A stretch of DNA of 64,000 bases from Candidatus Aminicenantes bacterium (GCA_011049425.1 DSBM01000053.1:3689-67688), one strand, 5' to 3'; shown: positions 15,887-53,999, counted from the first letter of the stretch. The notes: generated by a model not told the origin, from the letters alone. Translations and numbers: made by a program.

Positions 15887-15903
15887 AATGGGAATCAGCC
15901 TTT

Positions 15904-15924: not shown

Positions 15925-15945
15925 GAAGGCTGAAATGTGGAGTGC

Positions 15946-15974
15946 TTGTCTTCCCCTGTCCGATGTTGTATAAT
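15946..15974 (+). promoter_or_regulatory. Sigma70-like promoter for rpmB (TTGTCT-17 bp-TATAAT)
   Basis: -35 TTGTCT at 15946-15951, 17-nt spacer, -10 TATAAT at 15969-15974, ~30 nt upstream of the rpmB TTG start. Confidence 0.45.
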
Positions 15975-16003
15975 ATCGCTCTGATTTCCAGGAGGGACCC
16001 GAA

Positions 16004-16195: not shown

Positions 16196-16230
16196 TCGTA
16201 TAGCGCCTTTCTCCGGGACACACCGATTTC

Positions 16231-16737: not shown

Positions 16738-17467
16738 AAACTATCGCGTCACCCTGGAATTTGACGGCACCAGCTATTCCGGCTGGCAATACCAGAACCC
16801 GGAAACTCCTACCATTCAAAGAGAAATCATGCGCGTCCTGCAGGTGATCGCCAAGAAACGCGTGGTAGTCACCGGAAGCAGCCGCACCGACGCGGGTGTG
16901 CATTCACGGGGACTGGTGGCCAATTTTCACCTCCCGGTCCGTATCCAGCCGGACTCATTGCAATTGGCCATGAACGCCTTATTGCCCAGAGACATTCGCG
17001 TTTCCACCTGTGAACGTGCCCACCCCAAATTCAACGCCCGCTTCGGCGCGTGCAGCAAAACCTATGAATACCGCATCTTTCGCGGCCGCACGCTTTCGCC
17101 CTTTGATTGCCGCTGGGTGACCCACATTCCCCAACCCCTGGATATTCGGGCCATGAAACGAGCCCTGCGTCATTTCAAAGGTTCGAAAGACTACTCCTCT
17201 TTCACTTCGGACACAGAGAAAAAAAACCGGGTGCGAACCATCAACCGCATCAGCCTGAAAAAACGGGGTGATACCCTGATCCTCACCGTAACCGGCCCCG
17301 CATTCCTGCGATACATGGTTCGCAACATTGCCGGCACGCTGATCGACGTGGGCCGGGGAAAGATCGAAGCCGCGGACATCCCGGCAATTTTTGCCGCCAG
17401 AGACCGGCGGCGCTCCGGCCGGACTGCCCCCGCCCGGGGGCTGACCCTTCAGCGCGTAGACTACTGA
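16727..17467 (+). CDS. truA: tRNA pseudouridine(38-40) synthase (TTG start overlapping the upstream stop)
   Basis: YRVTLEFDGTSYSGWQYQ, then the catalytic Asp block SRTDAGVHS. Confidence 0.85.
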   Translation: MKPENYRVTLEFDGTSYSGWQYQNPETPTIQREIMRVLQVIAKKRVVVTGSSRTDAGVHSRGLVANFHLPVRIQPDSLQLAMNALLPRDIRVSTCERAHPKFNARFGACSKTYEYRIFRGRTLSPFDCRWVTHIPQPLDIRAMKRALRHFKGSKDYSSFTSDTEKKNRVRTINRISLKKRGDTLILTVTGPAFLRYMVRNIAGTLIDVGRGKIEAADIPAIFAARDRRRSGRTAPARGLTLQRVDY

Positions 17468-24368: not shown

Positions 24369-26333
24369 TTAGGTCATGTTTTTGTGGATAAAGTGGATCA
24401 GGTCACGGGTTTGAATATCATTGGACCCGGTTTCCTCAATGGCATCCTTGAACATGACGGAACAATAGGGACACGCAGTGACTAAAGTGTCCGCGCCGCG
24501 GGCGCAGGCATCCTGTATGCGAGCGTGACTCATGCGACCTTCGCCCTCTTCCTCTTTCCACATGCCGCCGCCACCGGCGCCGCAGCAAAACGACTTGTCG
24601 CGGTTATGGGTCATTTCCACCAGGCAACCGTCTTTAACAGCGGCCCGAAGCAAGCGACGCGGCGCATCGTACTCACCCTGGTAGCGGCCCAGGTAGCAGG
24701 GGTCATGAAAAGTGACACGATGCGACTTTGTTCCGGCATGCAACCGCAATGAACCGTTGTTGACCAGTTCTTCCAGCAGTTGGGTGTAATGCATCACCGC
24801 ATATTCACCACCCATGCGCTGGTATTCATGCCGCAGCACATGCAATCCATGGGGACACATGGTAACAATGCGGCGGAATTTATAACTGTTCAGATTTTCA
24901 ATGTTCTCCATGGCCAAAATCTGAAACAGGTATTCGTGCCCCGCCCTGCGTGCCGGGTCACCGCAGCATTTCTCACTGTCTCCCAGGATGGCAAAATCCA
25001 CCCCGGCCTTTTTCAGTACTTCCACCAGCATGCGGGTGTGCTTCTGGGCATGGCTGTCATAAGCGCCTTCACAGCCCACCCACAACAACACATCGGTTTC
25101 ACCCTTATCCGCGATCAAGGGTACATCCAGGCCTTCCATCCACTTGGAACGTTCCTGGGCGTTGATCCCCCAGGGATTGCCCTGGTTCTCCAGGCCGCGA
25201 AAAAGGGTCTGCAGCTCTTCGGGAAAACGGGATTCCATCATCACCCCGTACTGGCGCATTCCCGTGATTTTGGGGATGTGCTCGTTGAACATGGGGCAGA
25301 CTTCCATGCAGGCGCCACAAGTGGTACATGCCCAGATTTCCTCTTCGCTCACCACTTCGCCCAACAGGGTTTTTAAATCATCCCGCGGTGTCTCACCGAT
25401 TTCCAGCAAATGGAGTTGCATTTTGTGCAGCAACGCTTTGGGGGAAAGCGCCTTGCCTGTGCGCAAAGCCGGGCACACATCATCACAACGGCCGCACTCG
25501 GCACAGGAAAACAGGTCCAGCAGGTCTTTGCGGGTCAGGTCCACGATCTTGGGTGTTCCGAAATACTCCTGTTCTTCCAAATCAACCACGGGGATCTCGG
25601 CACGCACACCATGATTCTTGAAAAACAGGTTGACCGGACCGGCCACCAGGTGGAGATGCTTGGAAAAGGGGATCAGGACACCGAATGCCATTACCACCAG
25701 AATATGCAGCCACCACAAGACCCGCAACCACACTTCCTGGGTTGCTTTCGACATTATCGCAGGCAGCCAGTGGGCTTTGACCCATACCGCCAGAAAATTG
25801 CCGGAAACCATCGTTTCGGGACCGTAGAGTTTCAGGGCTTCATAAAAAACGAAACTCAGCATAAGCGTGGAGATAAAACCCAGAATCACTGCGGATTCCA
25901 TTGAAGGGATATCCAGGGTTGACGGCCGGAACACATAGCGCCGCACCAGGAAGAAAACCGCCGCCAGCAGGATCATGCCCGCAAAGATATTGGCGCCGAA
26001 CAGCACCACCGTACGAATCCCGCCTTGTCCCAGCAGGTTGAAGCCGGAAAAGAAACCTTCAACCACATGGTTGATGGTGACCAACAGGTAAACCAGGAAT
26101 CCCCAGAATATCATTGAGTGGAAAAAACCCACCACGGGCCGGTTCTCATAAGCGCAAAGCTGCAGCACCACGCGACGCAGGGCGTACCAGAAGCGCACCA
26201 GCGGCCGGTCACTCCTTTGGAACGGCCGTCCCCGTTGAATCAACAGCGCCTTGCGCCGAAACTCCCGCATGGCCAGAAAGACCGCTGCCAACGCCAACAA
26301 AACGAAAACGGTTTTTTCAATCAGTGTCAACAT
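24369..26333 (-). CDS. Fused membrane-anchored heterodisulfide-reductase-like Fe-S oxidoreductase (HdrE/NarI-like TM domain + HdrD-like 2x[4Fe-4S] + two CCG domains)
   Basis: ~6 N-terminal TM helices. Ferredoxin motifs CAECGRCDDVCP and CTTCGACMEVCP. CCG-type motifs CCG (CCGDPARRAG) and CCGAGGG...CPYC. Confidence 0.75.
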   Translation of the reverse strand: MLTLIEKTVFVLLALAAVFLAMREFRRKALLIQRGRPFQRSDRPLVRFWYALRRVVLQLCAYENRPVVGFFHSMIFWGFLVYLLVTINHVVEGFFSGFNLLGQGGIRTVVLFGANIFAGMILLAAVFFLVRRYVFRPSTLDIPSMESAVILGFISTLMLSFVFYEALKLYGPETMVSGNFLAVWVKAHWLPAIMSKATQEVWLRVLWWLHILVVMAFGVLIPFSKHLHLVAGPVNLFFKNHGVRAEIPVVDLEEQEYFGTPKIVDLTRKDLLDLFSCAECGRCDDVCPALRTGKALSPKALLHKMQLHLLEIGETPRDDLKTLLGEVVSEEEIWACTTCGACMEVCPMFNEHIPKITGMRQYGVMMESRFPEELQTLFRGLENQGNPWGINAQERSKWMEGLDVPLIADKGETDVLLWVGCEGAYDSHAQKHTRMLVEVLKKAGVDFAILGDSEKCCGDPARRAGHEYLFQILAMENIENLNSYKFRRIVTMCPHGLHVLRHEYQRMGGEYAVMHYTQLLEELVNNGSLRLHAGTKSHRVTFHDPCYLGRYQGEYDAPRRLLRAAVKDGCLVEMTHNRDKSFCCGAGGGGMWKEEEGEGRMSHARIQDACARGADTLVTACPYCSVMFKDAIEETGSNDIQTRDLIHFIHKNMT

Positions 26334-26367: not shown

Positions 26368-27162
26368 TCATGTGCCAGCCACTGATACCCTGGCTATTTT
26401 GCGGTTCAAAAAAACTTCCCCCACACGGCGGAACCGTTCCGGAAAATCGGTGACAAAAAAATCGTCCTCTTGATCGGGGGGTTCGTGGTTGAGCCAGCCC
26501 CGGTTACCCAGAATCAATTCCACCTGCCTGGCGGTCGTCAAACCCGAGTCGATGAGGCGGATCGCTTCGCCCATTACGGCCCCGACAACTTTACTGAGTA
26601 CCGGATAATGCGTACAACCCAGCACCAGGCTGTCGATACCCGCCTTTTTCAAAGGCAGTAAGTACTCTTCCGCCACCATTCGCGTCACTGTGTGATCCAC
26701 CCATCCCTCTTCCACCAGCGGAACAAACAGGGGACAATCCCGGGAGATAATTTCCAGATCGGGGTTACGCCTGCGAATGGCCTTTTCATAAGCTCCGGAC
26801 ATAATGGTGGCGGTGGTTCCAATCACACCTGCTTTTTTGCGGCTGAAGTCTACCGCGGCCTCGGCGCCGGGTTCAATCACGCCGATCACAGGCACCTCCA
26901 GGTTTGCCTGAAGGTGGGGAACCGCGTAAGAAGAAGAGGAGTTGCAAGCCACCACGATCAGTTTGACCTCGTGATTCACCAAAAAATGCGCGTTCTCCTC
27001 TGAAAAGCGAATGATGGTTGATTCCGACTTCGAGCCATACGGCAGGCGTGCCGTATCTCCCAGGTAGATCACTCGCTCCCGGGGCATTCGTTGCTTAATG
27101 GCGCGATATACAGTCAGGCCGCCGATACCGGAATCGAATACGCCGATGGGTTTTTTATTCAT
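26368..27162 (-). CDS. murI: Glutamate racemase
   Basis: IGVFDSGIGGLTV, VVACNSSS, LVLGCTHYP: both catalytic Cys blocks present. Confidence 0.9.
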   Translation of the reverse strand: MNKKPIGVFDSGIGGLTVYRAIKQRMPRERVIYLGDTARLPYGSKSESTIIRFSEENAHFLVNHEVKLIVVACNSSSSYAVPHLQANLEVPVIGVIEPGAEAAVDFSRKKAGVIGTTATIMSGAYEKAIRRRNPDLEIISRDCPLFVPLVEEGWVDHTVTRMVAEEYLLPLKKAGIDSLVLGCTHYPVLSKVVGAVMGEAIRLIDSGLTTARQVELILGNRGWLNHEPPDQEDDFFVTDFPERFRRVGEVFLNRKIARVSVAGT

Positions 27163-27733
27163 CCTGTTTCAGAAAGGCGAAGTTGGGGCGGAAAGGGCGA
27201 GACAGGTCGATATGTCCACTGAGCGTTTTGACTTCATTGCCCGCCACCATTATGCGTACGGAACGGATCTCTCTGAAATTAAAACATATGTTGTTTACGA
27301 TAAACTGAATAAACTCCAACTCTGACCGGCTTCCCCCGGGGAACCCGGTCATCAGAGCCTGATTGAAATCCAATACCAGGACCCGATCCGCTTCAACGTA
27401 GTACAATGCGCGAATTTGTGTGCCTTCCGGCACCGGGGCCCGGTCCTCTTCCCGCGGTTGCAGCAACAGGCGCAGGAATTCCCGATAAAGCTCAGTGCGC
27501 GTGGCTGGACGTGGGATACGCTTGGATATGGGTATCATGCGCCAATCCGTCCGGTCCATGTAAAACAGTTTCAGATCTACGGTGTCGGCCGGCGAAACTT
27601 CCGCTGTTCCGTCCGCGGCATCCGCGGGGGTGGGCGCGACCTGATCTTTTCCAGAGGAAAGAAAGATCATCAGGGCGACGGCAAAAAAAACCACAGCCAG
27701 TAAGACCAGCGGAACAATCAGTTTCTTGTTCAT
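27155..27733 (-). CDS. GerMN-domain (sporulation/germination-like) secreted protein
   Basis: Signal anchor, then a GerMN-like domain. Stop-start overlap with both neighbours. Confidence 0.6.
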   Translation of the reverse strand: MNKKLIVPLVLLAVVFFAVALMIFLSSGKDQVAPTPADAADGTAEVSPADTVDLKLFYMDRTDWRMIPISKRIPRPATRTELYREFLRLLLQPREEDRAPVPEGTQIRALYYVEADRVLVLDFNQALMTGFPGGSRSELEFIQFIVNNICFNFREIRSVRIMVAGNEVKTLSGHIDLSRPFRPNFAFLKQDE

Positions 27734-28857
27734 TTATAACGCTGGTTATGATAAGTGACAAACTGGGCGATCCCCGTGTAGATACCCCCGGCCACACGGC
27801 TGAGGAATCCATCCCGGGCCAACAGTTTTTCTTCGTCAGAATTGGAAAGAAAAGCGATCTCCACCAGCACCGCGGGCATGGCCGCGCGCATGAGCACACG
27901 AAAGGGAGCCTGTTTCACACCGCGGTTACGGGTATTCATCACCTCGTTGAGCTGGTTCTGAATGTAGGTGGCCAACTTGGAAGATTCCTTGATGTACTCC
28001 GTCTGGGCCATGTTCCACAAAATGAGCCTCAAGTCATCGGCCGCAGCGGGATCAAAAGCGTCTCCTCCCATGGAAGTGTTTTCTTTCCGCGCCAGTTCGG
28101 AGGCCTCCTTGTCCGTGGCCTCCAGGCTGACATAGTATGTTTCCGTACCGCGAGCACCGCGCCGGTAAGAAGAATTGACGTGAATCGAAACAAATACCTG
28201 GGCTTTCTGGTTATTGGCCATGGCCGCCCGCGAATCCAGGGAAATCTCTGAGTCGCTGTCCCGCGTCATGACCACCCGCAAACCCAAACGTGACTCGATC
28301 AACTGCTTTACTTTCAGGCCCACTTTGAGCGTAATGTCCTTTTCCACCAGGTCGGTTGTTCCAGCCCTGGCGCCCAGGTCGGTACCGCCATGACCCGGAT
28401 CGATGCAGATCGTATTGATGCTTGTTCCCTCGGGACGATCCGGCGCAGACACGGCTTCAACCTGGGGAGGTTGCGAGACCGCAGTTGGATTACCGGAGTC
28501 GGCCTCGAGATCAAATACCACGCGGAAAGGATTTTCCAGGACAAACTGCCGCTGGAAGCGAACCGGTATGTGGGTAACCACCCGGTAAACCGTGCCGTCA
28601 TGGCGCGGCAAAACATCCACCCGCTGAACGCAACGGCTTTCCTTTAACTGGATATTTTCAGGATCCGTACGTGCCGCCTGCTGCAGCCGCAAGTCAAAAC
28701 CGTTGTCTCGTGAAGAGACACTATAGGCAAAACTGCGGTCTGCTTCGAAAACGAGGCGGGTGTAATCCGAATAATCAAAAGAGCGTACGCTGACGTTTAA
28801 GCAGAAGGCCGTGACCGGCAGCAGCAGCAAGCCGATAATCATGGTAGTATGTTTCAT
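27730..28857 (-). CDS. N-acetylmuramoyl-L-alanine amidase (AMIN domain + Amidase_3)
   Basis: N-terminal AMIN-like domain (TRLVFEADRSFAY...NGFDLRL). C-terminal Amidase_3 (IDPGHGGTD, TRDSD). Confidence 0.85.
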   Translation of the reverse strand: MKHTTMIIGLLLLPVTAFCLNVSVRSFDYSDYTRLVFEADRSFAYSVSSRDNGFDLRLQQAARTDPENIQLKESRCVQRVDVLPRHDGTVYRVVTHIPVRFQRQFVLENPFRVVFDLEADSGNPTAVSQPPQVEAVSAPDRPEGTSINTICIDPGHGGTDLGARAGTTDLVEKDITLKVGLKVKQLIESRLGLRVVMTRDSDSEISLDSRAAMANNQKAQVFVSIHVNSSYRRGARGTETYYVSLEATDKEASELARKENTSMGGDAFDPAAADDLRLILWNMAQTEYIKESSKLATYIQNQLNEVMNTRNRGVKQAPFRVLMRAAMPAVLVEIAFLSNSDEEKLLARDGFLSRVAGGIYTGIAQFVTYHNQRYK

Positions 28858-33511: not shown

Positions 33512-34174
33512 TTATCTGGATGGAGCCAACAGATTCATAAGAATGGAAAAGGAACGATCCACCACGGCGGCTTCCAGGATAATGGTGAACTCACTGTAGG
33601 TTGAGACCACTTCAACCACGTTGATTCCCGACCATGCCAGGGGCTTGAGCAGGCCGTAGTGGATCCCCGGAGTAAAGATGACGGATTCGTCCAGGCGCAC
33701 GGAAACGGCGGCCAGGTTTTCAAGAGATTGGATCAATGTTTCCCTTACAAAAAAACGTACCGCCTTGTCCATAACGTCTTCACCGAGTACCAGCGTTATC
33801 TCGTTTACTCCCTGCGTAAGAGTAATAAACGCGTCGCCGTCCTCCTCAACTGATTCCAGCAAACGTTTCAGGCAATAATAAACTGATGGAGAGTGTCGAT
33901 ACGTCAATTCGCCCAGGCCGGACCGGACCGCAATTTTCCCCACGCCACGCAACGCTTTTTCAAGGTATGAACGCTTCCCGGATACCGACTCCTTCATGCG
34001 ATTCAAGGCCATCATCACGGCAGAGTCCGAAAGGTCGCGCATCAACTGTTTTTCCAGACCCGGCCTCAGTTCACGGGCCAGGGCCGAGAGATTGAGAATA
34101 TCCCTGGACATGGCTTCTTCGATAAAAGGGCTCTTGATCAACCACTCTGTTAACGCGTCGCTGATTGTTCGCAT
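33512..34174 (-). CDS. ACT-domain protein (aspartokinase regulatory-domain-like), divergent from the lys operon
   Basis: The C-terminal half resembles ACT repeats (FITLTQGVNEITLVL..., GINVVEVVSTYSEFTIIL). N-terminal ~90 aa unassigned. Confidence 0.4.
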   Translation of the reverse strand: MRTISDALTEWLIKSPFIEEAMSRDILNLSALARELRPGLEKQLMRDLSDSAVMMALNRMKESVSGKRSYLEKALRGVGKIAVRSGLGELTYRHSPSVYYCLKRLLESVEEDGDAFITLTQGVNEITLVLGEDVMDKAVRFFVRETLIQSLENLAAVSVRLDESVIFTPGIHYGLLKPLAWSGINVVEVVSTYSEFTIILEAAVVDRSFSILMNLLAPSR

Positions 34175-34283
34175 GTTAAATTTATAACATTGTGTTGTAT
34201 TTTTGTCAATATTAACTAATTTTTTGACTCACTCCCTCGCAGCAGCGTAGACTTCGGGCGTATTGAAATCAAAGGAGGCTAAC

Positions 34284-34457
34284 ATGAACAATCCGGTTGA
34301 ATGCCCTGTCTGCGGGGGGGGGCTGGATCTGCCTGAAGATGCCGTTCAGGGAGAACTGATCACCTGCCCGGAGTGCAACAGTGAGTTGGAGTTGGTAACA
34401 GTATCTCCTCTCAAGTTAGAGGAAGCTCCCGGCGAAGCAGAGGACTGGGGCGAGTGA
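34284..34457 (+). CDS. lysW: Amino-group carrier protein LysW
   Basis: [57 protein letters not shown]: zinc ribbon plus the acidic tail ending EDWGE, the LysW hallmark. RBS AGGAGG. Confidence 0.85.
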   Translation: MNNPVECPVCGGGLDLPEDAVQGELITCPECNSELELVTVSPLKLEEAPGEAEDWGE

Positions 34458-35668
34458 ATCCGAAAACCGTCCGTGTCCTGGACACCACGTTGCGTGAAGG
34501 GGAACAGACTCCCGGAATCTGCTTCCCTCCACACGCCAAAGCGGCGATTGCCGACATTCTGGAAACCATGGGCATCGATATCATTGAAGCCGGCCATCCG
34601 CTCGTCAGTTCAAGGACCTGGGCGGGGGTGCTGGCCGTGCGCCGCCGGATCCGCCGGGCCCTGGTTGCCGCCCACGCGCGCACAAAGCCCGGAGACCTGG
34701 TTGCAGCCCTGGACTGCGGGGTGGATCTTGTGGGAATCTTTTTCTGCGTTTCCGACCAGCGCTTGGCCCACCACGACATCACCCTGAACGCCGCCATTGA
34801 TCGCATCTGCTCTATCATCCGTCAGAGCAAGGAACAGGCACCTGAAGTCCTGGTTCGATACACCCCAGAGGACACGGTGCGCTCCGCCTGGAAGAACGTC
34901 CGACAGGCGGCGTGTGCCGCGGTTGATGCCGGAGCGGACATTATCAGTGTAGCGGACACCACCGGCGCCATGATTCCCGGGGGGGAACACTCCCTGAAGC
35001 CCTATGTGGCCCGCATGCAAGACGAATTTTCCCGCCGTGGATTGAATGCGGAAATCGCCGTCCATTGTCATAATGACCGTGGTCTGGCATTGGCGAACGC
35101 CCTTGACGGCATCCGCGGGGGGGCGACAATCGTGGACGCATCGGTATTGGGACTGGGGGAACGTGCCGGCATCGTTGATCTGGCCACCTTGCTGTCTGCT
35201 CTGTGCAACGATATGGGACTTGACCACCATTGGGATCTTACCCGGCTTCCGCATCTCTACAACACAGTCAGTCGCTTTTCCGGTATCCAGCCCGGCGTAA
35301 ACGCTCCAATCATCGGCCGCCACGCGTTTACCCACTGCGCCGGGGTTCACACCCAGGCCGCGCTCAACAATCCGGTACATTACGAAAGCCTGCACCCGGA
35401 AATGTTCGGGCGCTCCCGCAAAGTCGCGCTGGACCACATGTCAGGCATGTCTTCCCTGCGCTACTCCCTGGAGCAAATCGGATGCGACGAATTGGACCCG
35501 GAATTGACGACACGGCTGTTGGATGAGGTTAAACATATCGGTCACTCAGGTAGATGCATTGATCTGGTTGAACTGCGCTGGCTGGTGGATTCAATTAGAT
35601 CCGAATTTTCCTCTGGAGAAAATCATGATTCATATCACCCTTGTTCATTCGCTGATCCGGCGGGATGA
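34454..35668 (+). CDS. Homocitrate synthase (HMGL-like DRE-TIM fold)
   Basis: [11 protein letters not shown], then the catalytic core HCHND (HCHNDRGLA). Assigned to homocitrate rather than isopropylmalate synthase from the lysW/lysX context. Confidence 0.7.
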
Positions 35669-36470
35669 AAAACTCATTATGCAGGCTTTTGATCGCCACC
35701 CGCGCGTTCGCTGGACCGCCCTGGATGACCGTAGACATTGCCTGTCACCCAACCTCTCTTTGCCACACACGGATCTGTATTTTTGCCGCAGCCTTTCCCA
35801 GGGCAATACCCTGGCCTGGCTGGAGTACCTGGGGAATCAAGACCAGCGCTGTGTGAACTCTTTCGAGGTGGTACGGACCTGTGGAGACAAATTCTCCACT
35901 TCACTTGCCCTGCAGCGTGCGGGTGTACCCCAACCTTTGTTCTGCCTGGCATTGACGGCTGAGCAGGCCTTGTGTGCAATGGAAGAAATGGGATTCCCCG
36001 TGGTCGTCAAGCCCCTGGTCGGTTCCTGGGGACGCCTCATTGCGCTGATCAAAGACAGGGACGCGGCCGAAGCCGTACTCGAGCATAAAACCCGCTTGGG
36101 CGGTGTCGCGCATCAGCACATCTACATCCAGGAACATATATCGAAACCCGGCCGGGACATCCGTGCGTTTGTGGTCAATGATGAATGCATCGCCGCCATT
36201 TACCGCGAGTCTTCGCACTGGATCACCAACACCGCCCGGGGAGGAAAGGCTTTTAATTGCCCGATCACGGATGAAATCCACGAAATCGCGCTGAAAGCAT
36301 CCTTGGCCGTTGGTGGAGGCATTCTTGCCGTTGATTTGCTGGAAAGTGATCACGGCCTGCTGGTCAACGAAATCAATCATAACATGGAGTTCAAAAACTC
36401 CATTGACGTTACCGGTGTAAACATCCCGGAGCGAACCTTGGAAGGGCTTTTGAGCCTTGTGGAGAATTGA
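35625..36470 (+). CDS. lysX: Alpha-aminoadipate--LysW ligase (RimK-type ATP-grasp)
   Basis: ATP-grasp core ([14 protein letters not shown], ...NEIN). RBS GGAGAA-ATG at 35625. Confidence 0.8.
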
Positions 36471-37505
36471 ATGTCGAAAATCACCGTTACTGTTGCCGGC
36501 GCTTCCGGATTCACCGGTGGAGAATTGCTGCGTTTACTCTTATTCCATCCACGCGTAGAGGTTATCGCCGCCACTTCAGAACGCAATCGCGGCAAACCTG
36601 TTGCGTTGATTCACCCCAACCTGTATAGACACACCCGCCTGCGTTTCTCTTCGATGGAAGAGTTGCCGAGCAGTGACTTTCTCTTTCTGGCCCTTCCCCA
36701 TGGAGAAAGCAGCCGGCGTATCCACCTTTTGAGTGACAAGGCGTCAAAAATCATCGACTTGAGCGCGGATTTCCGCATTGCGGATCCAACCGTTTATCGT
36801 CAATGCTACGGCAAAGAGCACCCCGCTCCAGAATGGCTCAGTCAATTTATTTACGGCATCGTGGAAGTAAACCGCGAGCGTATCCGTACCGCAACCCGCG
36901 TCAGCGGGGCCGGGTGCAATGCCACTGCCGCCATTCTGGCATTATGGCCCCTGGCCCACGCCGGACTGCTCGACGACAGCTGGATCATCTGTGATATCAA
37001 GACCGGCACCAGCCAGGCGGGAGCCGCCCATTCCGCGGCCGGCCATCATCCCGTCCGCAGCGGGTCAGTGCGCAGTTACAAGCCTACCGGACATCGGCAC
37101 GGCACCGAGATTCGAAATTGCTTGAACCATGAACAGATCAGAATCAGCACCACCGGCCTCGACATTGTTCGCGGCATTCTGGCTACCTGTCACCTTTCTC
37201 TTCCCGCGGGTCTGGATGACCGCAAACTGCGGGGGGTTTTCAGAGCCGCCTATGCGGAAGAGCCGTTTATCCGTATCGTCAAAAAGTCATCTGGAGTTTT
37301 TCGCTATCCGGACCCTCGCCTGCTGGCGGGAAGCAACATCTGTGATATCGGTTTTGAAATCAATCGCGATGAGAACAGTCTGGTCGTTCTTTCCGCCCTG
37401 GACAATCTGATGAAGGGAGCGGCCGGGCAAGCAATCCACTGCATGAACCTGATGGCCGGGTTTCCCGAGACCTGCGGCCTTCAATTTCAAGGGCTATATC
37501 CCTGA
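36471..37505 (+). CDS. lysY: [LysW]-aminoadipate-6-phosphate reductase (ArgC family)
   Basis: GASGFTGGELLRLL NAD site; active Cys block SGAGCNAT. Confidence 0.85.
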   Translation: MSKITVTVAGASGFTGGELLRLLLFHPRVEVIAATSERNRGKPVALIHPNLYRHTRLRFSSMEELPSSDFLFLALPHGESSRRIHLLSDKASKIIDLSADFRIADPTVYRQCYGKEHPAPEWLSQFIYGIVEVNRERIRTATRVSGAGCNATAAILALWPLAHAGLLDDSWIICDIKTGTSQAGAAHSAAGHHPVRSGSVRSYKPTGHRHGTEIRNCLNHEQIRISTTGLDIVRGILATCHLSLPAGLDDRKLRGVFRAAYAEEPFIRIVKKSSGVFRYPDPRLLAGSNICDIGFEINRDENSLVVLSALDNLMKGAAGQAIHCMNLMAGFPETCGLQFQGLYP

Positions 37506-37515
37506 GGAGGAAGAG

Positions 37516-38157
37516 ATGTGTCGCATGTTGTTGATTCAGGACGACACCCCGTTTAACCCGGAACCGGACCTGATTGCCTTTCAGGATCTTTGCCGCGCCA
37601 GCCACGTTTACCAGGGGCACGGCTGGGGCATCGCCTACATGGATAACCGGGGCGAATGGCGCCATTATCGCAGTATCATTCCGATCTGGAAAGCAGACAT
37701 GGGCCGGATCCCCCCCACCCGCTGGCTTCTGGCTCATGCCCGCAGCGCTTTCAACAACGAAGGAATCCGTGTGGAAAACAACATGCCGTTTTTTCAGAAC
37801 GAGCGCAACTTCATTTTCAACGGTGAAATCCGCGGTGTACGCTTTCGGGCCCCGGGACGGATCGGCGCGGAAAAACTGTTCAATGTGATCAACCATTTCT
37901 GCGGCGACGATCTGCACACTAACCTTGAGAGAGCGGTCCATGCCGTCACGAGCCGCAGCCGCCATGTCCGGGCCATGAACATGATGCTGACGGAAAACGA
38001 CCGCACCATCGTGTTTTCCTACTTCACCCAGGAAGCAGATTATTTCACCCTTTACAAGCGCAAAACCGGCAATCGCACCACAATTTGTTCAGGCCGTTTC
38101 GGCCTCATCGAGGATTGGAGCTCCCTGGACAACCCCTGCCTGGAGATGGTCTCGTGA
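37516..38157 (+). CDS. Stand-alone class-II (Ntn, YafJ/EgtC-type) glutamine amidotransferase domain protein embedded in the lys cluster
   Basis: N-terminal MCRML (Cys2 nucleophile). LLAHARSAFNNEG...NNMPFF aligns with GlmS-type HTRWATHG...NAHPH. FNGEIRG aligns with the HNGxIxN oxyanion-hole block. Confidence 0.75.
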   Translation: MCRMLLIQDDTPFNPEPDLIAFQDLCRASHVYQGHGWGIAYMDNRGEWRHYRSIIPIWKADMGRIPPTRWLLAHARSAFNNEGIRVENNMPFFQNERNFIFNGEIRGVRFRAPGRIGAEKLFNVINHFCGDDLHTNLERAVHAVTSRSRHVRAMNMMLTENDRTIVFSYFTQEADYFTLYKRKTGNRTTICSGRFGLIEDWSSLDNPCLEMVS

Positions 38158-38948
38158 ACATCATAAAAATCGGCGGTGGTTCATCCGTAAATGTCGGCGG
38201 CATTCTCGATGACCTAAAGAAACTGGAAAGACCGGCCGTCATCGTTCATGGCGCCAATGCCTGGCGCGACGAGCTGGCCGGACACCTGAACCGGCCGATT
38301 CGCCGGTTGGTCTCTGAAAGCGGCCGTTCCAGTGTCTATTCCGACGACTCACTCCTGGACCTGCAGCTCATGGCCTACGCGGGCCTGCGCAATAAGCGTA
38401 TCGTAGAGATGTGCCAGCAGCGGGGATTTAATGCCGTGGGACTCACCGGCCTGGACGGCGGCCTGGTACGGGCTCGGCGCAACCCGGGGATCCGAATCGT
38501 GGAGAATAACCGGAAACGGCTTGTTCGCGATCTATCGGGCAAACCTGAAGCGCTGAACTTTCCCCTGCTGGACTACCTGTTGAAGTCAAATTATCTTCCA
38601 GTAATCACCGTACCCTTTCTCGACGAGAGAGGAAACGCGGTCAACAGCGAAAACGACGACCTGGTCAGCCTCCTTCACCGGGAATTGCAGGCGCAGCGCA
38701 TCTTTTTTTTCATTGAAGCCCCTGGACTGCTGCGGGATCCCCTGAACAACTCATCCATAATCCACCGCCTGACACCACCCGAGCTTGAAACGGAAATCAC
38801 GCGCTCCGATGGCAGAATGGGGCGTAAATTGCATGCGTTGAAAGCGATTCTGGCCATACCTCCTGTTACGGTTTTTATCTGTGACGGTCGGTTGGAGCAC
38901 CCCGTTCAGCATGCCCTAAACGGAAGCGGAACATGCATCAGCGCGTAA
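38154..38948 (+). CDS. lysZ: [LysW]-aminoadipate kinase (acetylglutamate kinase family; GTG start)
   Basis: VNIIKIGGGS...VIVHGAN: amino-acid kinase fold. Overlaps the upstream stop. Confidence 0.8.
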   Translation: MNIIKIGGGSSVNVGGILDDLKKLERPAVIVHGANAWRDELAGHLNRPIRRLVSESGRSSVYSDDSLLDLQLMAYAGLRNKRIVEMCQQRGFNAVGLTGLDGGLVRARRNPGIRIVENNRKRLVRDLSGKPEALNFPLLDYLLKSNYLPVITVPFLDERGNAVNSENDDLVSLLHRELQAQRIFFFIEAPGLLRDPLNNSSIIHRLTPPELETEITRSDGRMGRKLHALKAILAIPPVTVFICDGRLEHPVQHALNGSGTCISA

Positions 38949-38971
38949 TGTCGCGGTCGGAGCCGCGGCAA

Positions 38972-40117
38972 ATGAACTTTTCCGCCAATCGCGGCATACG
39001 CCTGATCAAGGGCGAAAACGCCACTATTTATGATGACTGCGGTCGCACCTACATCGATCTGGCCTCCGCACACGGAGTCGCCGCGGTCGGGCATGCCCAC
39101 CCGGCCGTTGCCCGGGCCGTGGCTTTTCAAAGCCAACATCTGCTCAGTTGCCCGGGCAGTTTTTCCAATGATGCCCGCGACAGATTGATCTCAGCCCTTT
39201 CCCGGGTAACGCCTCCCGCCCTTAACCGCTTCTTTTTCTGCAACTCCGGCACGGAAGCGGTTGAAGCCGCCCTGAAACTGGCCGCTATCAGTAACGGCAG
39301 ATCACGATTTGTCGCGTTTAAAAGGAGCTTTCACGGACGCACCATCGGCGCCCTGGGCGTAACCTGGCCTCCCGGGTACCGCGAACCATTTCATTCCCTA
39401 TTGCCGCAAGTGACGTTCCTGCCTTTCAACCAGGTGGAAGGCTTGATCAAAGCGATTGATCATACCGTGGCGGCCGTAATCGTGGAAGGAGTTCAGGGCG
39501 AAGGGGGTGTGTACCCGGCCCGGGCGGATTTTCTTTGCGAAATCCAGTCAGCCTGCAACGAGAGCGATGCATGCCTGATTCTGGATGAAATCCAGACTGG
39601 AGGCGGTCGGACCGGAAAATTCTGGGCGCACAGCCACTTCGGGGTTACGCCGGACATCATCTGTTTCGCCAAGGCCCTGGGGGGAGGCTTCCCTTTCGGT
39701 GGCATCGCCTGCGGACCGCGGATAATGGAAAAACCCGGAATTCATGGCTCTACGTTCGGCGGCAACCCCGTGGCCTGCGCCGCAGCCGCCGCAGCCCTGT
39801 CTATTATTGAGTCCCAGGACCTGTGCGTTATGGCCGCTGAGAAAGGCGAGATCATCATCGAGCAATTGCAGCGGGAGCCCTTGCCCGGGGTTCGAGATAT
39901 CCGCGGCCTCGGATGCATGGTGGGAATCGAACTGGAATACGCCGTTACGCCATTGCTCAAACGGCTGCAGGCACGGGGCGTCATCGCCCTGGCGGCCGGG
40001 CCTCACGTCATGCGTCTGCTACCGCCGCTGACAATCCCGGAAGAACAATTGCTCCGTGCCCTGGATACATTGATCACACTATTGAAAAACCCCCATCCCA
40101 AAAAACCATGTTCATGA
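38972..40117 (+). CDS. lysJ: [LysW]-aminoadipate semialdehyde / acetylornithine aminotransferase (class III PLP)
   Basis: GTEAVEAALKLA, LILDEIQTGGGRTG, PLP-Lys block FAKALGGG. Start may be as early as 38933. Confidence 0.8.
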   Translation: MNFSANRGIRLIKGENATIYDDCGRTYIDLASAHGVAAVGHAHPAVARAVAFQSQHLLSCPGSFSNDARDRLISALSRVTPPALNRFFFCNSGTEAVEAALKLAAISNGRSRFVAFKRSFHGRTIGALGVTWPPGYREPFHSLLPQVTFLPFNQVEGLIKAIDHTVAAVIVEGVQGEGGVYPARADFLCEIQSACNESDACLILDEIQTGGGRTGKFWAHSHFGVTPDIICFAKALGGGFPFGGIACGPRIMEKPGIHGSTFGGNPVACAAAAAALSIIESQDLCVMAAEKGEIIIEQLQREPLPGVRDIRGLGCMVGIELEYAVTPLLKRLQARGVIALAAGPHVMRLLPPLTIPEEQLLRALDTLITLLKNPHPKKPCS

Positions 40118-42498
40118 AAAATGTTTCGTATTGGCAGGCTCTCCCATATGTCTATCGTGCGTTTCTCTGGTGTGTTCACAATACCCTGGAACATTGTGAA
40201 CTAACCATCGACTGGCCGAAACGAGCGGAAAAGCTGGTGGGCATGGAGGTTCCGTTTTGTCCGACCCGACTCCTGCTCCAGGACGCCTCGGGTTTGAATT
40301 TAGTCCAGGACCTGATCTCCAGTACAGTGAACGGGTCGCGACTCCCGCCCATGGACCTGGTGGTGGATCACGGCATCATTACCGAGGACTTCGGCAATAA
40401 ACAGTCTGCCGCGCGCAATCGCCGCACGGAAATGAATGCCAATCACCACCGTTACCGTTTTTTTAAAGATGCCTCCAGGATAATCCCTTCATTGACCATT
40501 CATCCCCCGGGATCGGGGGTGATTCATCAACTCAACCTGGAACGCCTGGCACCGCAAAAAGCGTCATTCAGCCTCGATACCCCCCAGGATTGCGTTCTGG
40601 GCACCGACTCTCATACCCCGATCATCAATGCCCTCGGCGTTCCGGGTTGGGGAGTCGGCGCCCTGGAAGCGCTCTACGCCGCCTGTTTCGGCCCCGTATC
40701 TCTGGCCATCCCTCCGGTCACCCAGGTTGTATTGCGTGGGAAACTTCGCGCAAATTGCACACCCACCGACCTGGCCCTCCACCTGGCCCACCGACTCAGG
40801 AGGATCGGCATCAATGGGACCTGGGCGGAATTCAGCGGTCCCGCCCTGGATTATCTGCCTATCGCGGATCGGGCCGTTCTTGCCGGCATGGCCCCTGAAT
40901 ACGGCTGCCAGATGGCGTTTTTTCCCGTGGATCATTGCGGGATCGCTTTCATGGAACGAATCGTGGGATCCGTGCGGACGCAACGCTGGCGGAAGGTCGC
41001 CCAAATAAGGGGGCTATGGCGCGAAAACCGTCCAACGCGACCGGTCGCGTGTGAAATCATTGTTGACCTGGATCAACTGAAGCCCTGCGCTTCAGGGCCT
41101 GAATACCCCTGGCAGCGGGTAACCGCAATATCTACAAAACCCGTGCGCCTGGCGGCCATCACTTCATGCACAAACGGCGCCCACCCGAGAATGTTGATCC
41201 GCGCGGCACTGCTCGCCCGCAACGCCTTGCGAGCCGGGATAAGTCCGGCTCCACGAATCAAAACGGTTCTCGCTTTATCCTCAACCCGGGTTATGGCTTT
41301 TTTGCGCGAAAGCGGCCTGGCTTCGTACCTTGAACAAACCGGCTTCTTTGATTGCGGCATCGGCTGCGGACCGTGCTTAGGCCATTGCGGTTCACTCCCG
41401 CCAGAGACCACGCAAGGCAACGATCAAGGCTGCGCCGTCATTTCCGGCAACCGTAATTTCCCCGGACGCATCCACCCGGAACTCGACGCGGTTTTTTTGG
41501 CATCGCCGGAACAAGTGGTAGCCGCGACCTTGATGGGTCGGTGGGGTGGAGTCATCGACCCATGCTCGTCCCATCCATTCGCCCGCCTGTGGGCCGAACA
41601 AGCGGAGGTTGAACACTACCAGGCCCAGTGGAACAATGCCCACATTCCCCTGCAAACTGAAAAGTTGTTGCGCCGGGAAGCCCAAGAGCATTGGCATCAT
41701 TTCAGGGCCGAACCTTCTGGTGAAATACAGGGGCTCCGGAAAATCACCGCATCTCCCCTTGCCGATATTGGAACACCTTCCTGGATAAAAAGCGGCAGCC
41801 TGAACAACGCCGGGGTATTGGTTAAACTCGGTGACGGGATAACCACCGACCATATTTCACCCGTCGGCCCGATCCCCCGGGAAAGCGAGTCGGGGCGATT
41901 CATTCTCATGAAATCCGGCCTGTCAACAACTCCGCAAAGTTATGCTGCCTGGCGCGCCAATGCCGAAGTCATGATCAGGGGAGGATTCACGTCACCACGC
42001 CTGCACAACCTGCTGCTGACGGAGCAACCTTCAGGGGGATATACGGCAATCCGGGGAAACAATCACACCTTGCCGATCTGGAAGGCGGCGCGAATCTATC
42101 GCTTCCGGCGCGTACCGCTGATTGTTCTGGCGGGCAAAGAATACGGAGCCGGTTCGGCGCGCGACTGGGCAGCTAGGGTGACCCGCCTGCTGGGCGTTGA
42201 AGCAGTAATTGCGCTTTCTTTTGAGGAAATCCATCGCCGCAACCTGATCACCATGGGCGTTATTCCCTTGCTTTATAATCAAGACAACCGCCACGACATC
42301 TACGCCATCGGGGCCGAGCACCGCTTGACCATCCGCCAACTCAAAGATCTGGCACCGGAAAGCCGGCAGGATTGCATTGTTCGCGATCCCATGGGGCGGA
42401 CTGCAACGATTCCACTTACTTCCGCCATCAGGACGGAATGGGAAGCCAACCTGCTTATGCGAGGTGGTATTCCAAGCCGCATGGAAAAACACGTGTAG
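40114..42498 (+). CDS. Aconitase-family hydro-lyase, single-chain (~795 aa), translationally coupled to lysJ; candidate homoaconitase
   Basis: LGTDSHTP, ITSCTNGAHP, CGPCLGHCG, NRNFPGR and the swivel-domain GSARDWA: the full set of aconitase cluster-ligand and substrate motifs in AcnA domain order. Confidence 0.75.
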   Translation: MKNVSYWQALPYVYRAFLWCVHNTLEHCELTIDWPKRAEKLVGMEVPFCPTRLLLQDASGLNLVQDLISSTVNGSRLPPMDLVVDHGIITEDFGNKQSAARNRRTEMNANHHRYRFFKDASRIIPSLTIHPPGSGVIHQLNLERLAPQKASFSLDTPQDCVLGTDSHTPIINALGVPGWGVGALEALYAACFGPVSLAIPPVTQVVLRGKLRANCTPTDLALHLAHRLRRIGINGTWAEFSGPALDYLPIADRAVLAGMAPEYGCQMAFFPVDHCGIAFMERIVGSVRTQRWRKVAQIRGLWRENRPTRPVACEIIVDLDQLKPCASGPEYPWQRVTAISTKPVRLAAITSCTNGAHPRMLIRAALLARNALRAGISPAPRIKTVLALSSTRVMAFLRESGLASYLEQTGFFDCGIGCGPCLGHCGSLPPETTQGNDQGCAVISGNRNFPGRIHPELDAVFLASPEQVVAATLMGRWGGVIDPCSSHPFARLWAEQAEVEHYQAQWNNAHIPLQTEKLLRREAQEHWHHFRAEPSGEIQGLRKITASPLADIGTPSWIKSGSLNNAGVLVKLGDGITTDHISPVGPIPRESESGRFILMKSGLSTTPQSYAAWRANAEVMIRGGFTSPRLHNLLLTEQPSGGYTAIRGNNHTLPIWKAARIYRFRRVPLIVLAGKEYGAGSARDWAARVTRLLGVEAVIALSFEEIHRRNLITMGVIPLLYNQDNRHDIYAIGAEHRLTIRQLKDLAPESRQDCIVRDPMGRTATIPLTSAIRTEWEANLLMRGGIPSRMEKHV

Positions 42499-53536: not shown

Positions 53537-53537
53537 A

Positions 53538-53927
53538 TCAGTCCTCCGTAACGATTTCGATGGCGGCGGTGGGGCACTCCTTGGCGCAGGCGCCGCAGGC
53601 AATGCACTTGAAAGGCACGATGCCTTCGTGGTAGGTTTGCATTGTCCCGGTCGGGCAGATGGCCACGCAAGCATAGCAACCGATGCACAAATTCTTGTTG
53701 AGCATGACAACACCCGCTTTGTTTACCGTCAACGCCATGGTGGGACATTCAGCCACACAGGTGCGGCACTGATTGCAAACGCTGAGGTCAAATTCGCCTC
53801 CAGCCTGATCCAGCACTTGAATACACGATTTTTCCGCCGACACCTCCTTAAAGTAAAGCTGGGAGCATACATCTTCGCAGGTGCGGCACCCGATACACTT
53901 TTCGGGATGGGTTTGCAAATACTTCAT
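53538..53927 (-). CDS. Poly-[4Fe-4S] ferredoxin, AOR electron-transfer partner
   Basis: Four CxxCxxCxxxCP-type motifs (CIGCRTCEDVC, CNQCRTCVAECP, CIGCYACVAICP, CIACGACAKECP). Adjacent to the AOR start. Confidence 0.8.
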   Translation of the reverse strand: MKYLQTHPEKCIGCRTCEDVCSQLYFKEVSAEKSCIQVLDQAGGEFDLSVCNQCRTCVAECPTMALTVNKAGVVMLNKNLCIGCYACVAICPTGTMQTYHEGIVPFKCIACGACAKECPTAAIEIVTED

Positions 53928-53999
53928 CGGCCTTCTTCTCCTTTCAATGACTCGATTTTTCGCTACCCATATACGGGCACACATGAATTCTAGGATTGA

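Follow-up and report, generated by a model that had tools for sequence, protein, structure and literature searches.

Described carrier-protein systems

In the alpha-aminoadipate (AAA) pathway of Thermus thermophilus, the closest described counterpart of the locus reported here, homocitrate synthase (HCS), the heterodimeric HacAB, homoisocitrate dehydrogenase (HICDH) and LysN act together with the carrier protein LysW and the enzymes LysX, LysZ, LysY, LysJ and LysK. In characterised systems of this type the last step, the release of lysine, is performed by LysK, an M20 metallopeptidase. The LysW proteins characterised to date all end in glutamate, and that residue is the attachment site (PMC10433800); the corresponding ligases are distinguished by specificity motifs that read F-I-T-NS in LysX, I-Y-V-GF in ArgX and Y-I-T-NA in bifunctional enzymes (PMC12998189).

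A second described locus, Cabys_3146-3153 of Caldithrix abyssi, encodes LysWXZYJ together with Hcs (PMC5317091). It holds the same lysW, hcs, lysX, lysY, lysZ and lysJ set as the locus described below, and this type of cluster is already known from that organism. The Caldithrix investigators left an extra gene without an assignment, and regarded the pathway as possibly incomplete or as subject to non-orthologous displacement (PMC5317091). In loci from Calditrichota MAGs (L021, L024 and L029), the genes are arranged as lysW-hcs-lysX-lysY-hydrolase-lysZ-lysJ; no aconitase gene adjoins the cluster in the Calditrichota loci examined, unlike in the window analysed here, a stretch of 64,000 nucleotides from a Candidatus Aminicenantes MAG.

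The Aminicenantes locus shares with the Thermus system the EDWGE tail of LysW and the F-I-T-NS and GSWGR motifs of LysX; its LysZ, LysY, LysJ and LysW all find their best solved-structure matches among the Thermus proteins, and the residues by which HCS binds 2-oxoglutarate are common to both. It departs from Thermus in that all of its genes lie in one operon, which contains an EgtC-like Cys-Ntn hydrolase instead of an M20 LysK and an AcnA-type monomeric aconitase rather than a heterodimeric HacAB, and in that its sister clusters include Gln-ended LysW proteins. We consider it highly probable that the operon provides both the entry step of AAA lysine biosynthesis and its entire carrier-protein half, the roles of the hydrolase and the aconitase within that scheme being proposals.

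Organization of the locus

Eight close-packed genes on the plus strand (34284-42498) form a single operon, in the order lysW, homocitrate synthase, lysX, lysY, a gene for a 213-residue protein, lysZ, lysJ and an AcnA-like aconitase gene. The genes are contiguous, with 4-nt overlaps at lysW/hcs, at the 213-aa gene/lysZ and at lysJ/acn. A ribosome-binding site, AAAGGAGG, precedes lysW at 34271-34278 (+), and the AT-rich intergenic region farther upstream contains a promoter-like site, TTGACT-18-TAGACT (34224-34253, +), identified purely by its resemblance to the consensus, which is no evidence of function.

Divergent from lysW lies a gene for a 220-aa protein (33512-34174, minus strand) with a weak C-terminal ACT-like domain. 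No Pfam family is matched above cutoff (ACT_7, E=0.022); a homologue at another locus, L157, shares 38% identity along the entire length and matches ACT_7 with E=3.8e-5. A family member is found upstream of lysW at 10 of the 82 loci compared, and probably at L089 too. The protein may be an amino-acid-sensing regulator, for which it is a candidate.

A sequence-only reading of this DNA had correctly named and placed seven of the operon's genes on the plus strand, and had overlooked the eighth, at 37516-38157. Its remark that the genome still encodes murI and peptidoglycan amidases agrees with an Asp_Glu_race gene (26368-27162, minus) and an Amidase_3 gene (27730-28857, minus) within the window, and its G+C estimate of about 60% gives way to a measured 56-58%. 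The absence of HICDH, LysN and LysK that it reported for the cluster extends, for homologues, to the whole 64 kb, and genes for HICDH, LysN or the DAP pathway were not seen within the window by Pfam matches and gene context.

The carrier protein and its lysine-type enzymes

The first gene (34284-34457, +) encodes LysW, a Zn-ribbon amino-group carrier protein of 57 aa that contains two CxxC pairs, has a pI of 4.05 and ends, as had been noticed before, in EDWGE (AEDWGE-stop). It exceeds the TIGR01206 cutoff (57.1 bits against 53.2), also matches PF21344, and aligns end to end with solved LysW proteins, the best of which is T. thermophilus LysW (3wwl). LysX (35625-36470, +), the RimK-type ATP-grasp enzyme responsible for loading alpha-aminoadipate onto LysW, likewise passes its model (TIGR02144, 297.5 against 275.6) and aligns without gaps to Thermus LysX over residues 53-277. 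Its specificity residues, F182-I192-T203-N258-S259, correspond to the lysine-type motif, and the LysW-recognition motif GSWGR is present (VGSWGRL). In pairwise comparison T. thermophilus LysX gives 278 bits, ahead of the bifunctional TK0278 (189) and S. tokodaii ArgX (157).

The three enzymes that follow were assigned largely by comparison with solved structures. LysY (36471-37505, +), the [LysW]-aminoadipyl-phosphate reductase of the ArgC family, scores 357.9 against TIGR01850 (argC), above the cutoff of a model that does not separate lysine from arginine enzymes; its best PDB match is T. thermophilus LysY (5eio/2ozp, 349 bits), with ArgC at 196 or less. LysZ (38154-38948, +), the [LysW]-aminoadipate kinase, falls below the NF010659 cutoff (204.4 against 223), and its assignment rests on lysW synteny and on its best PDB match, T. 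thermophilus LysZ (3u6u, 151 bits; ArgB 49 or less). LysJ (38972-40117, +; Aminotran_3), the [LysW]-aminoadipate-semialdehyde aminotransferase, also lies below curated cutoffs (LysJ_Th_th, 378 against 700; an argD subfamily, 391.6 against 410), with T. thermophilus LysJ (1vef, 343 bits) its best PDB match and ArgD at 275 or less.

Homocitrate synthase, 404 aa (34454-35668, +), consists of HMGL-like and HCS_D2 domains and has no LeuA-type regulatory domain. Enzymes of this kind are diagnosed by a glutamate metal ligand (LREGEQ) and by the equivalents of Thermus His72 and Arg133, which serve the distal carboxylate of 2-oxoglutarate. At Thermus E13, H72 and R133 the protein carries Glu, His and Arg in place of the Asp, Leu and Glu of E. 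coli LeuA, and HCS-type residues are kept at R12, E13, H72, R133, T166, H195 and H197 (Thermus numbering). PDB scores are highest for homocitrate synthases (6ktq 217 bits, 2ztj 157, 3ivs 150), followed by isopropylmalate synthase (IPMS, 136) and citramalate synthase (CimA, 76). Every curated NCBIfam cutoff lies above the protein's score (300.5 against 413.55 for TIGR02146; 305.6 for an IPMS subfamily model). The earlier assignment as homocitrate synthase is supported by these residues and by the greater closeness to solved HCS than to isopropylmalate or citramalate synthases.

These comparisons bear on whether the cluster could be an arginine/ornithine (ArgW/ArgX-type) or a bifunctional lysine/ornithine carrier system. 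Thermus LysZ, LysY and LysJ accept glutamate-derived intermediates (PMC12998189), a tolerance that would suit such a system, as would the top NCBIfam names of two of the genes (TIGR01850 argC and the argD subfamily). Against these points stand a LysX motif that is strictly F-I-T-NS rather than I-Y-V-GF or Y-I-T-NA, a homocitrate synthase with HCS-type residues that is translationally coupled to lysW, and the fact that all four carrier-dependent enzymes are nearest to Thermus lysine proteins; an arginine-type or bifunctional role is accordingly improbable. The lysine-type (AAA) identity of the cluster, which the sequence-only reading had proposed, is thus supported at the sequence level by the LysX motif and by LysX, LysZ and LysY scores that favour the lysine proteins.

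Amino-group carrier proteins (AmCP) have also been reused in secondary metabolism, as in the DADH clusters of Streptomyces, and the operon might by that precedent supply a secondary-metabolite pathway with a non-proteinogenic amino acid. We regard this as very improbable, since tailoring, transketolase, NRPS and export genes are absent from the window, the core is kept in hundreds of species of many phyla beside housekeeping genes, and both a lysine-type LysX motif and a homocitrate synthase are present.

An EgtC-like hydrolase between lysY and lysZ

The overlooked gene (37516-38157, +), between lysY and lysZ, encodes a protein of 213 aa whose AlphaFold2 model (pLDDT 91) adopts the class-II GATase fold, and for which the best Foldseek match is EgtC (4zfl/4zfj, E 1e-11, TM 0.78-0.82). 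Class-II GATases of the Ntn type are defined by an N-terminal cysteine exposed upon removal of methionine, an arginine for the glutamyl alpha-carboxylate, an Asn-Gly oxyanion hole and a four-layer alpha-beta-beta-alpha fold. All 104 homologues compared have Cys-Arg directly after the start-codon residue, and the invariant residues of the family include M1-C2-R3, H74-A75-R76 and N102-G103; the last two groups align with H71-T72-R73 and N98-G99 of GlmS, in a weak alignment (hhalign against the glutaminase domain: probability 0.56%, E 0.1, 33 columns). The protein is a class-II GATase/Ntn amidohydrolase by these features, although its Pfam GATase_4 score is below cutoff (12 against 23 bits), and it has the Ntn fold, N-terminal Cys, GlmS-R73-like Arg and Asn-Gly pair in common with EgtC and stand-alone amidohydrolases of this fold (4zfj, 3mdn, 1te5).

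EgtC, the gamma-glutamyl-hercynylcysteine sulfoxide hydrolase, likewise cuts a gamma-glutamyl amide and frees an amine; the 213-aa protein is only 18% identical to it, and its proposed substrate is instead a protein C-terminus. Orthology to EgtC in ergothioneine synthesis was rejected, with a TIGR03442 score of 39.8 against a cutoff of 218.65; an EgtC gene would be expected in linkage with egtA, egtB, egtD and egtE, and the neighbourhood contains no genes for ergothioneine synthesis. Members of the hydrolase family have a median pI of 8.5 and are thus basic, whereas LysW is very acidic. GlmS and PurF hold glutamine by its free alpha-amino group through an aspartate. No aspartate is invariant in the hydrolase family, so that this residue may be missing, a loss that would fit a substrate glutamate whose alpha-amine is held in a peptide bond.

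Among at least 525 hydrolase matches in GTDB species genomes, 80 loci were examined, and in all 80 the gene is either flanked by lysY and lysZ or, where the cluster is split, adjoins lysY. The family forms approximately 140 clusters at 50% identity, and the 80 loci span Acidobacteriota, Gemmatimonadota, Gammaproteobacteria, Ignavibacteria, Calditrichota, Bacteroidota, Desulfobacterota, Planctomycetota and one DPANN archaeon; independent metagenome contigs have the same placement in lysW clusters. With its cluster type found in this many species genomes and phyla, the pathway is less rare than had been supposed. The accompanying LysX carries FITNS in 67 of 69 cases and the conservative variant FVTNS in two, and no other recurrent gene families were found around the hydrolase clusters. 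Nor did we find a published description of a role for the hydrolase in LysW clusters.

The LysW proteins of these clusters end in EDWGQ in 26 of 62 cases and in glutamate in 36, including that of this window, and the two tails alternate within families. When loci were picked solely by a DNA pattern for EEDWGQ-stop, the hydrolase was present in 19 of the 19 with enough flank to evaluate. At one Gln-tailed locus (L157) the usual place of the hydrolase is taken by an HMGL-like gene, and the 7.2 kb examined contain no hydrolase.

Searches with E. coli ArgE and DapE probes found no M20 peptidase in the 64-kb window or in approximately 200 related loci (a comparison of ArgE with DapE, serving as positive control, reached E 2e-21), and no M20 Pfam families occur among the called genes of the window. 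We think it likely that the 213-aa enzyme releases lysine from LysW in place of LysK. Its chemistry, as we infer it, would be cleavage of the gamma-amide on the last residue of LysW, which would both free lysine and deamidate Gln-tailed carriers.

The hydrolase might instead be an accessory, maturing Gln tails or stripping mis-loaded residues such as glutamate, while an M20 LysK or ArgE encoded elsewhere releases lysine. Thermus lysK is itself unlinked to lysWXYZ, and Gln tails call for a deamidase in approximately 40% of clusters. Homologues of other pathway genes are also scattered in the Caldithrix genome (PMC5317091). The gene is nevertheless kept in all of the Glu-tailed clusters (36/62), and an enzyme retained where LysW already ends in glutamate must act beyond deamidation. 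Its constant operon position across phyla and the lack of a linked M20 gene in approximately 200 loci also argue against a purely accessory function, as does the fact that a LysW-Gln deamidase and a LysW-gamma-Lys hydrolase break the same bond. We judge the accessory role unlikely, and retain lysine release as the preferred function.

A divergent AcnA-like aconitase

The last gene (40114-42498, +) encodes a divergent aconitase-family protein of the AcnA/IRP1 type, 794 aa, with Aconitase and Aconitase_C domains. It shares with AcnA/IRP1 aconitases and fungal homoaconitase the four-domain monomer with a C-terminal swivel, the trio of Cys ligands and most of the catalytic residues; in contrast to AcnA/IRP1, it is approximately 90 residues shorter, with deletions, and sits in a lysine operon. 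It was rejected as a standard AcnA (NF006757, 584 against a cutoff of 686; TIGR01341, 542 against 945), and a comparison with 5.8 billion proteins yields no non-self match above 40% identity. The Fe-S ligands are retained together with the catalytic Asp-His, Asp-Ser-His, Asn-Arg, Arg and Ser..Arg. Four substitutions (N258G, T355G, N424H and R705E) affect sites at which few or none of 17 AcnA sequences vary, the asparagine lost through N258G being identical in all those compared, and the first three lie near the Fe-S ligands in sequence.

The conversion of homocitrate to cis-homoaconitate requires an aconitase-type enzyme in Thermus and yeast, and isomerisation of homocitrate to homoisocitrate by the AcnA-like protein is a tentative assignment, to which we give a little under an even chance. 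The protein could be an ordinary cellular aconitase or an impaired enzyme, and it is quite possible that the gene is a housekeeping or decaying aconitase and that homoaconitase derives from LeuCD/HacAB-type genes elsewhere. Across approximately 200 loci an aconitase adjoins a lysW-type cluster solely in this lineage, catalytic residues of the citrate type are kept (including an arginine that we take to be the equivalent of mitochondrial-aconitase Arg580), and at a locus of another lineage (L140) a LeuC/HacA-like gene adjoins lysW-HCS, all of which would suit a housekeeping origin. Conversely, the 4-nt overlap of the aconitase start with the lysJ stop implies co-translation, an identity of 40% or less together with changes at conserved sites is unusual for a housekeeping AcnA and fits a change of function, and the homocitrate half-reaction needs an enzyme of this type.

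A proposed pathway

In the homoaconitase reading, the operon's homocitrate synthase would condense acetyl-CoA with 2-oxoglutarate and the co-translated AcnA-like protein would convert homocitrate to homoisocitrate, with HICDH and the AAA aminotransferase encoded outside the locus. LysX would then use ATP to link AAA, through its alpha-amino group, to the gamma-carboxyl of Glu57 at the LysW C-terminus, and the tethered side chain would be phosphorylated by LysZ, reduced by LysY and transaminated by LysJ to give LysW-gamma-lysine. The N-terminal cysteine of the EgtC-like enzyme would attack the gamma-glutamyl amide, so that lysine leaves, and hydrolysis of the resulting thioester would regenerate LysW-Glu; the EDWGQ forms of sister clusters would be converted to the active Glu form by the same hydrolase chemistry.

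Taken jointly, the proposals are that the EgtC-like family is the missing [LysW]-lysine hydrolase, a non-orthologous replacement of LysK; that approximately 40% of the carriers are Gln pro-forms requiring deamidation by it before LysX can act; and that the operon described here adds an orphan AcnA-derived homoaconitase. We give this combination somewhat better than even chances. If it is true, a non-orthologous enzyme would have taken the place of LysK in a form of the AAA pathway that is widespread among bacteria.

Organization of the lysine gene cluster

A reading made from the sequence alone had placed a complete-looking LysW-type lysine cluster at 34284-42498 of the window, and this was borne out: the genes that it named all lie there on the forward strand, within a run of eight contiguous open reading frames encoding LysW (34284-34457), an HMGL-like synthase (34454-35668), LysX (35625-36470), LysY (36471-37505), a protein of 213 residues (37516-38157), LysZ (38154-38948), LysJ (38972-40117) and an aconitase-family protein (40114-42498). 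The 213-residue gene had been overlooked in that inventory, which otherwise stood. Identical gene calls were obtained on public contigs carrying the same sequence (ENA ERZ1742330 NODE_62 and JGI 3300022547). Three of the junctions are 4-nucleotide start/stop overlaps, lysX and lysY abut directly, and the largest gap is 23 nucleotides; upstream of lysW lie AAAGGAGG and a promoter-like site within an AT-rich spacer. The eight genes form one operon.

Elsewhere the window carries genes of housekeeping, envelope and anaerobe type. Among them are those for a tungsten-type aldehyde:ferredoxin oxidoreductase and a polyferredoxin (51377-53930, reverse strand) and for a CCG/Fer4 protein (24369-26333, reverse strand), and this gene content looks anaerobic, in keeping with Aminicenantes. 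The murI gene and a peptidoglycan amidase gene (Amidase_3) were found as had been claimed; the G+C content, put earlier at about 60%, was measured at 56-58%. The earlier remark that homoisocitrate dehydrogenase (HICDH), LysN and LysK are missing from the locus also held, in that neither HICDH, LysN, an M20 peptidase (the family of LysK) nor genes of the diaminopimelate (DAP) pathway were found within the 64-kb window. Searched against Rfam at gathering thresholds, the whole window gave no hit to a lysine riboswitch or to any further known RNA, and a tRNA scan of the window returned no tRNA. Divergent from lysW, at 33512-34174 on the reverse strand, is a gene for a 220-residue protein with a weak C-terminal ACT-like domain; its family occurs upstream of lysW in 10 of 82 loci, probably also in locus L089, and in locus L157 (38% identical; ACT_7 E=3.8e-5), and it may regulate the operon by sensing amino acids.

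Assignment to the lysine type

The lysine (alpha-aminoadipate, AAA) type proposed for the cluster was upheld by comparison with arginine-type enzymes. LysW and LysX pass curated equivalog cutoffs, and over residues 53-277 the alignment of LysX with its Thermus thermophilus counterpart is free of gaps. At the five specificity-setting positions established by the Nishiyama group it reads F-I-T-NS, the AAA-specific pattern, whereas the ArgX motif is I-Y-V-GF and bifunctional enzymes carry Y-I-T-NA (PMC12998189); it also contains GSWGR, the motif by which LysW's EDWGE tail is recognized (PMC10433800). For LysZ, LysY, LysJ and LysW, the Thermus lysine protein is the best solved relative of each, with 151 bits for LysZ as against 49 for the best arginine enzyme, 349 against 196 for LysY, and 343 against 275 for LysJ.

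As for the possibility, raised earlier, that the HMGL-like gene groups with citramalate or isopropylmalate synthases, its product scores highest against solved homocitrate synthases (217, 157 and 150 bits), followed by isopropylmalate synthase (136) and citramalate synthase (76). In an alignment with the solved homocitrate synthases TtHCS and SaHCS, both transcribed from a printed alignment, and with Escherichia coli LeuA, its residues at TtHCS positions E13, H72 and R133 are Glu, His and Arg, as against Asp, Leu and Glu in LeuA; the Glu, His and Arg recur in 22-25 of 25 synthases from sister clusters. The homocitrate synthase, LysZ, LysJ and aconitase fall below NCBIfam curated cutoffs, and are taken on their sequences to be divergent members of their families.

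A stand-alone Cys-Ntn hydrolase

The product of the 213-residue gene (HDP94505.1 in the Aminicenantes genome, labelled ‘hypothetical protein’ at NCBI) begins Met-Cys-Arg and has only weak library matches (EgtC, 39.8 bits; GATase_4, 12 bits). A search of 5.8 billion proteins returned over 1100 homologues, each some 212 residues long, and an exhaustive profile search at E ≤ 1e-30 gave 138 clusters at 50% identity; 104 of 104 homologues open with the start-codon residue followed by Cys-Arg. An alignment of 25 sequences shows invariant M1-C2-R3, H74-A75-R76, E87-N88-N89-M90-P91-F92, N102-G103-E104, G114-R115-I116-G117-A118-E119-K120 and R152-A153-M154-N155, and contains no invariant Asp. Two longer proteins, P0295 (477 residues) and P0380 (356 residues), carry part of the hydrolase domain; the length of P0295 equals that of the hydrolase plus LysZ, and it may be either a fusion of the two or a frameshift artefact.

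The AlphaFold model is confident (pLDDT 91), and its nearest solved structure is EgtC, an Ntn hydrolase of the ergothioneine pathway (E 1e-11, TM 0.78-0.82), followed by two uncharacterized proteins of the class-II GATase fold and by the GlmS and PurF glutaminase domains. A weak profile alignment, in which only the central 33 columns match the E. coli GlmS glutaminase domain and the equivalent of the Asp that binds the alpha-amine lies outside the sequence placement, sets R76 at GlmS R73 and N102-G103 at the oxyanion pair N98-G99. Because of the Met-Cys-Arg start, the EgtC-like model and the placement of R76 and N102-G103, the protein is assigned, as modelled, to the stand-alone Cys-Ntn amidohydrolases, of the type that cleaves gamma-glutamyl amides.

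Genomic distribution of the hydrolase

All contexts of the hydrolase gene that were examined are lysW clusters. Three metagenome contigs picked for diversity have the order lysW-lysX-lysY-hydrolase(-lysZ-lysJ), and a closer relative of the window has lysW-hcs-lysX-lysY-hydrolase-lysZ-lysJ. A scan of GTDB with one genome per species yielded at least 525 confirmed relatives, and in the best 80 of these loci lys genes border it in constant order in 80 of 80, with departures only at contig ends and in split clusters, which have lysZ and lysJ at a distance of some kb. These 80 are distributed over Acidobacteriota, Gemmatimonadota, Gammaproteobacteria, Ignavibacteria/Melioribacter, Calditrichota, Bacteroidota, Rhodothermaceae, Desulfobacterota, Planctomycetota, KSB1, Binatia and a DPANN archaeon, and in 25 of the 80 lysW is followed by homocitrate synthase. 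With or without an adjacent synthase, the LysX motif in these clusters is FITNS (67/69) or FVTNS (2/69). Two loci carry additional genes of related type: L041 has two tandem LysX paralogues (7260-8920; 53% and 42% identical to the LysX of the window) that could be a LysX/ArgX pair, and L047, from a Melioribacteraceae genome, has a canonical ArgC/ArgB/ArgD-like set directly 3' of the lys cluster (13180-17205), placing two paralogous pathways side by side.

All-against-all clustering of flanking reading frames identified no M20 peptidase, HICDH, LysN or LeuCD as a recurrent partner; the sole recurrent extra family was the ACT-like upstream protein. Probes of E. coli ArgE and DapE, which detect each other at E 2e-21, gave a single marginal match across about 200 loci and the window. 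These searches of cluster surroundings bear in part on the main rival explanation of the hydrolase, a plausible though less likely one, namely that it is an accessory enzyme of maturation or proofreading and that LysK is encoded elsewhere in the genome; to our knowledge, an ArgE/DapE-like metallopeptidase closes the LysW cycle in all characterized cases.

Glutamine-terminated LysW

The lysW gene of the window ends in EDWGE (terminal codon 34452-34454), and a C-terminal Glu is found in all three solved LysW proteins; the side-chain carboxyl of that residue is the attachment point (PMC10433800). Among LysW tails from hydrolase-containing clusters, 36 are EDWGE and 26 are EDWGQ followed by a stop codon, so that Gln accounts for about 40%, and the two states interchange within Gammaproteobacteria, Melioribacteraceae, Bacteroidota and Acidobacteriota, and within families. 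As far as we know, a terminal Gln could not be activated by the ATP-grasp ligase before its side-chain amide had been hydrolysed, and hydrolysis of that amide is the signature reaction of the class-II glutaminase fold.

In a separate test, metagenome contigs were scanned for a DNA pattern encoding EEDWGQ-stop; 72 of 120 matches were genuine lysW genes, and the hydrolase was present in all 19 Gln-tailed loci with at least 3.6 kb of downstream sequence. The shorter Gln-tailed locus L157 (contig Ga0208825_1000359) is a possible exception to the pairing: the 7.2 kb of it that was covered contains no hydrolase, and a 340-residue HMGL-like/HCS_D2 gene (5787-6809, forward strand) lies between lysY and lysZ, the site that the hydrolase gene usually occupies. 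Locus L140 (1661-4443) has an architecture unlike the others, in which genes for a more distant homocitrate synthase (36% identity) and for a large subunit of LeuC/HacA-like type come after a Gln-tailed lysW.

Proposed role of the hydrolase

It is probable, though well short of assured, that the hydrolase is the enzyme that releases lysine from LysW. Its N-terminal Cys would attack the gamma-carbonyl of the last LysW residue, with R76 holding the free alpha-carboxylate of that residue; L-lysine would leave, and hydrolysis of the thioester on Cys would regenerate LysW-Glu and close the cycle. On newly translated Gln-tailed LysW, ammonia would be the leaving group. In glutamine-using relatives an Asp grips the free alpha-amine of the substrate, and a family without an invariant Asp would fit a substrate residue whose alpha-amine sits in a peptide bond. 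The hydrolases are basic as a family, with a median pI of 8.5, and LysW is strongly acidic (pI 4.05), in weak agreement with docking on the carrier.

With respect to a purely accessory function, deamidation cannot be the whole role of the enzyme, because Glu-tailed clusters keep the gene. Two further roles were rejected: that of a true amidotransferase subunit, since no synthase partner recurs and LysJ takes an amino-acid donor, and, as a general role, that of an ATP-independent loader acting by transamidation from LysW-Gln, since LysX is always present and Glu tails are the majority.

Relation to known systems

The operon belongs among the LysW/AmCP lysine systems, and the cluster itself is ordinary. 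The locus Cabys_3146-3153 of Caldithrix abyssi resembles it in having the same lys gene set, as was noted earlier in a paper that left the extra gene unassigned and suggested non-orthologous displacement as a possibility in the pathway (PMC5317091). In the literature outside subscription journals, no account was found that places a GATase/EgtC-like enzyme, or a LysW ending in Gln, in the LysW pathway; a GapMind preprint of 2026 mentions LysW for TK0276 only, and a riboswitch paper uses ‘lysW’ for an unrelated transporter (PMC5584792). The pattern of hydrolase and Gln tail thus appears new, and is well supported at the level of sequence comparison.

The aconitase-family gene

The last gene of the cluster, whose start codon overlaps the lysJ stop, encodes an AcnA/IRP1-like protein (432 bits to human IRP1; HDP94508.1, labelled ‘hypothetical protein’ at NCBI) that is about 90 residues shorter than AcnA/IRP1 and falls under the AcnA cutoffs. 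It is an orphan, its top non-self match among 5.8 billion proteins being 40% identical, and an aconitase stood beside the lys cluster in no other locus examined. A gammaproteobacterial genome has AcnX and AcnX-swivel genes between lysZ and lysJ, in the opposite orientation (L006/L030, 11464-13166, reverse strand); as a second link to aconitase this was dropped, being confined to that locus.

According to work on Thermus and yeast, homocitrate dehydration requires an aconitase-type enzyme distinct from HacAB/Lys4, and a recruited AcnA paralogue is reasonable for that reason. The protein retains the three Cys ligands and the catalytic Asp-His, Asp-Ser-His, Asn-Arg, Arg and Ser..Arg residues; it also carries N258G, T355G, N424H and R705E, among other substitutions, at sites where all or nearly all of 17 diverse AcnA proteins agree. 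Recruitment for homocitrate dehydration is tentatively put forward, at slightly less than even chances, and a housekeeping or impaired enzyme is nearly as likely.

Implications

The LysW route is a textbook case of carrier-protein amino-acid biosynthesis that shows the common ancestry of the lysine and arginine pathways, and automated reconstructions score genomes with clusters of this kind as lysine-incomplete. If a Cys-Ntn gamma-glutamyl hydrolase does release lysine in these hundreds of species, a gap in the pathway would be filled, its final step would have been invented twice, and genetically encoded Gln-terminated carriers would be accounted for. The AAA pathway would then be of common occurrence among Acidobacteriota, the FCB group, Desulfobacterota and some Gammaproteobacteria, and would no longer be a curiosity of Deinococcus-Thermus and archaea.
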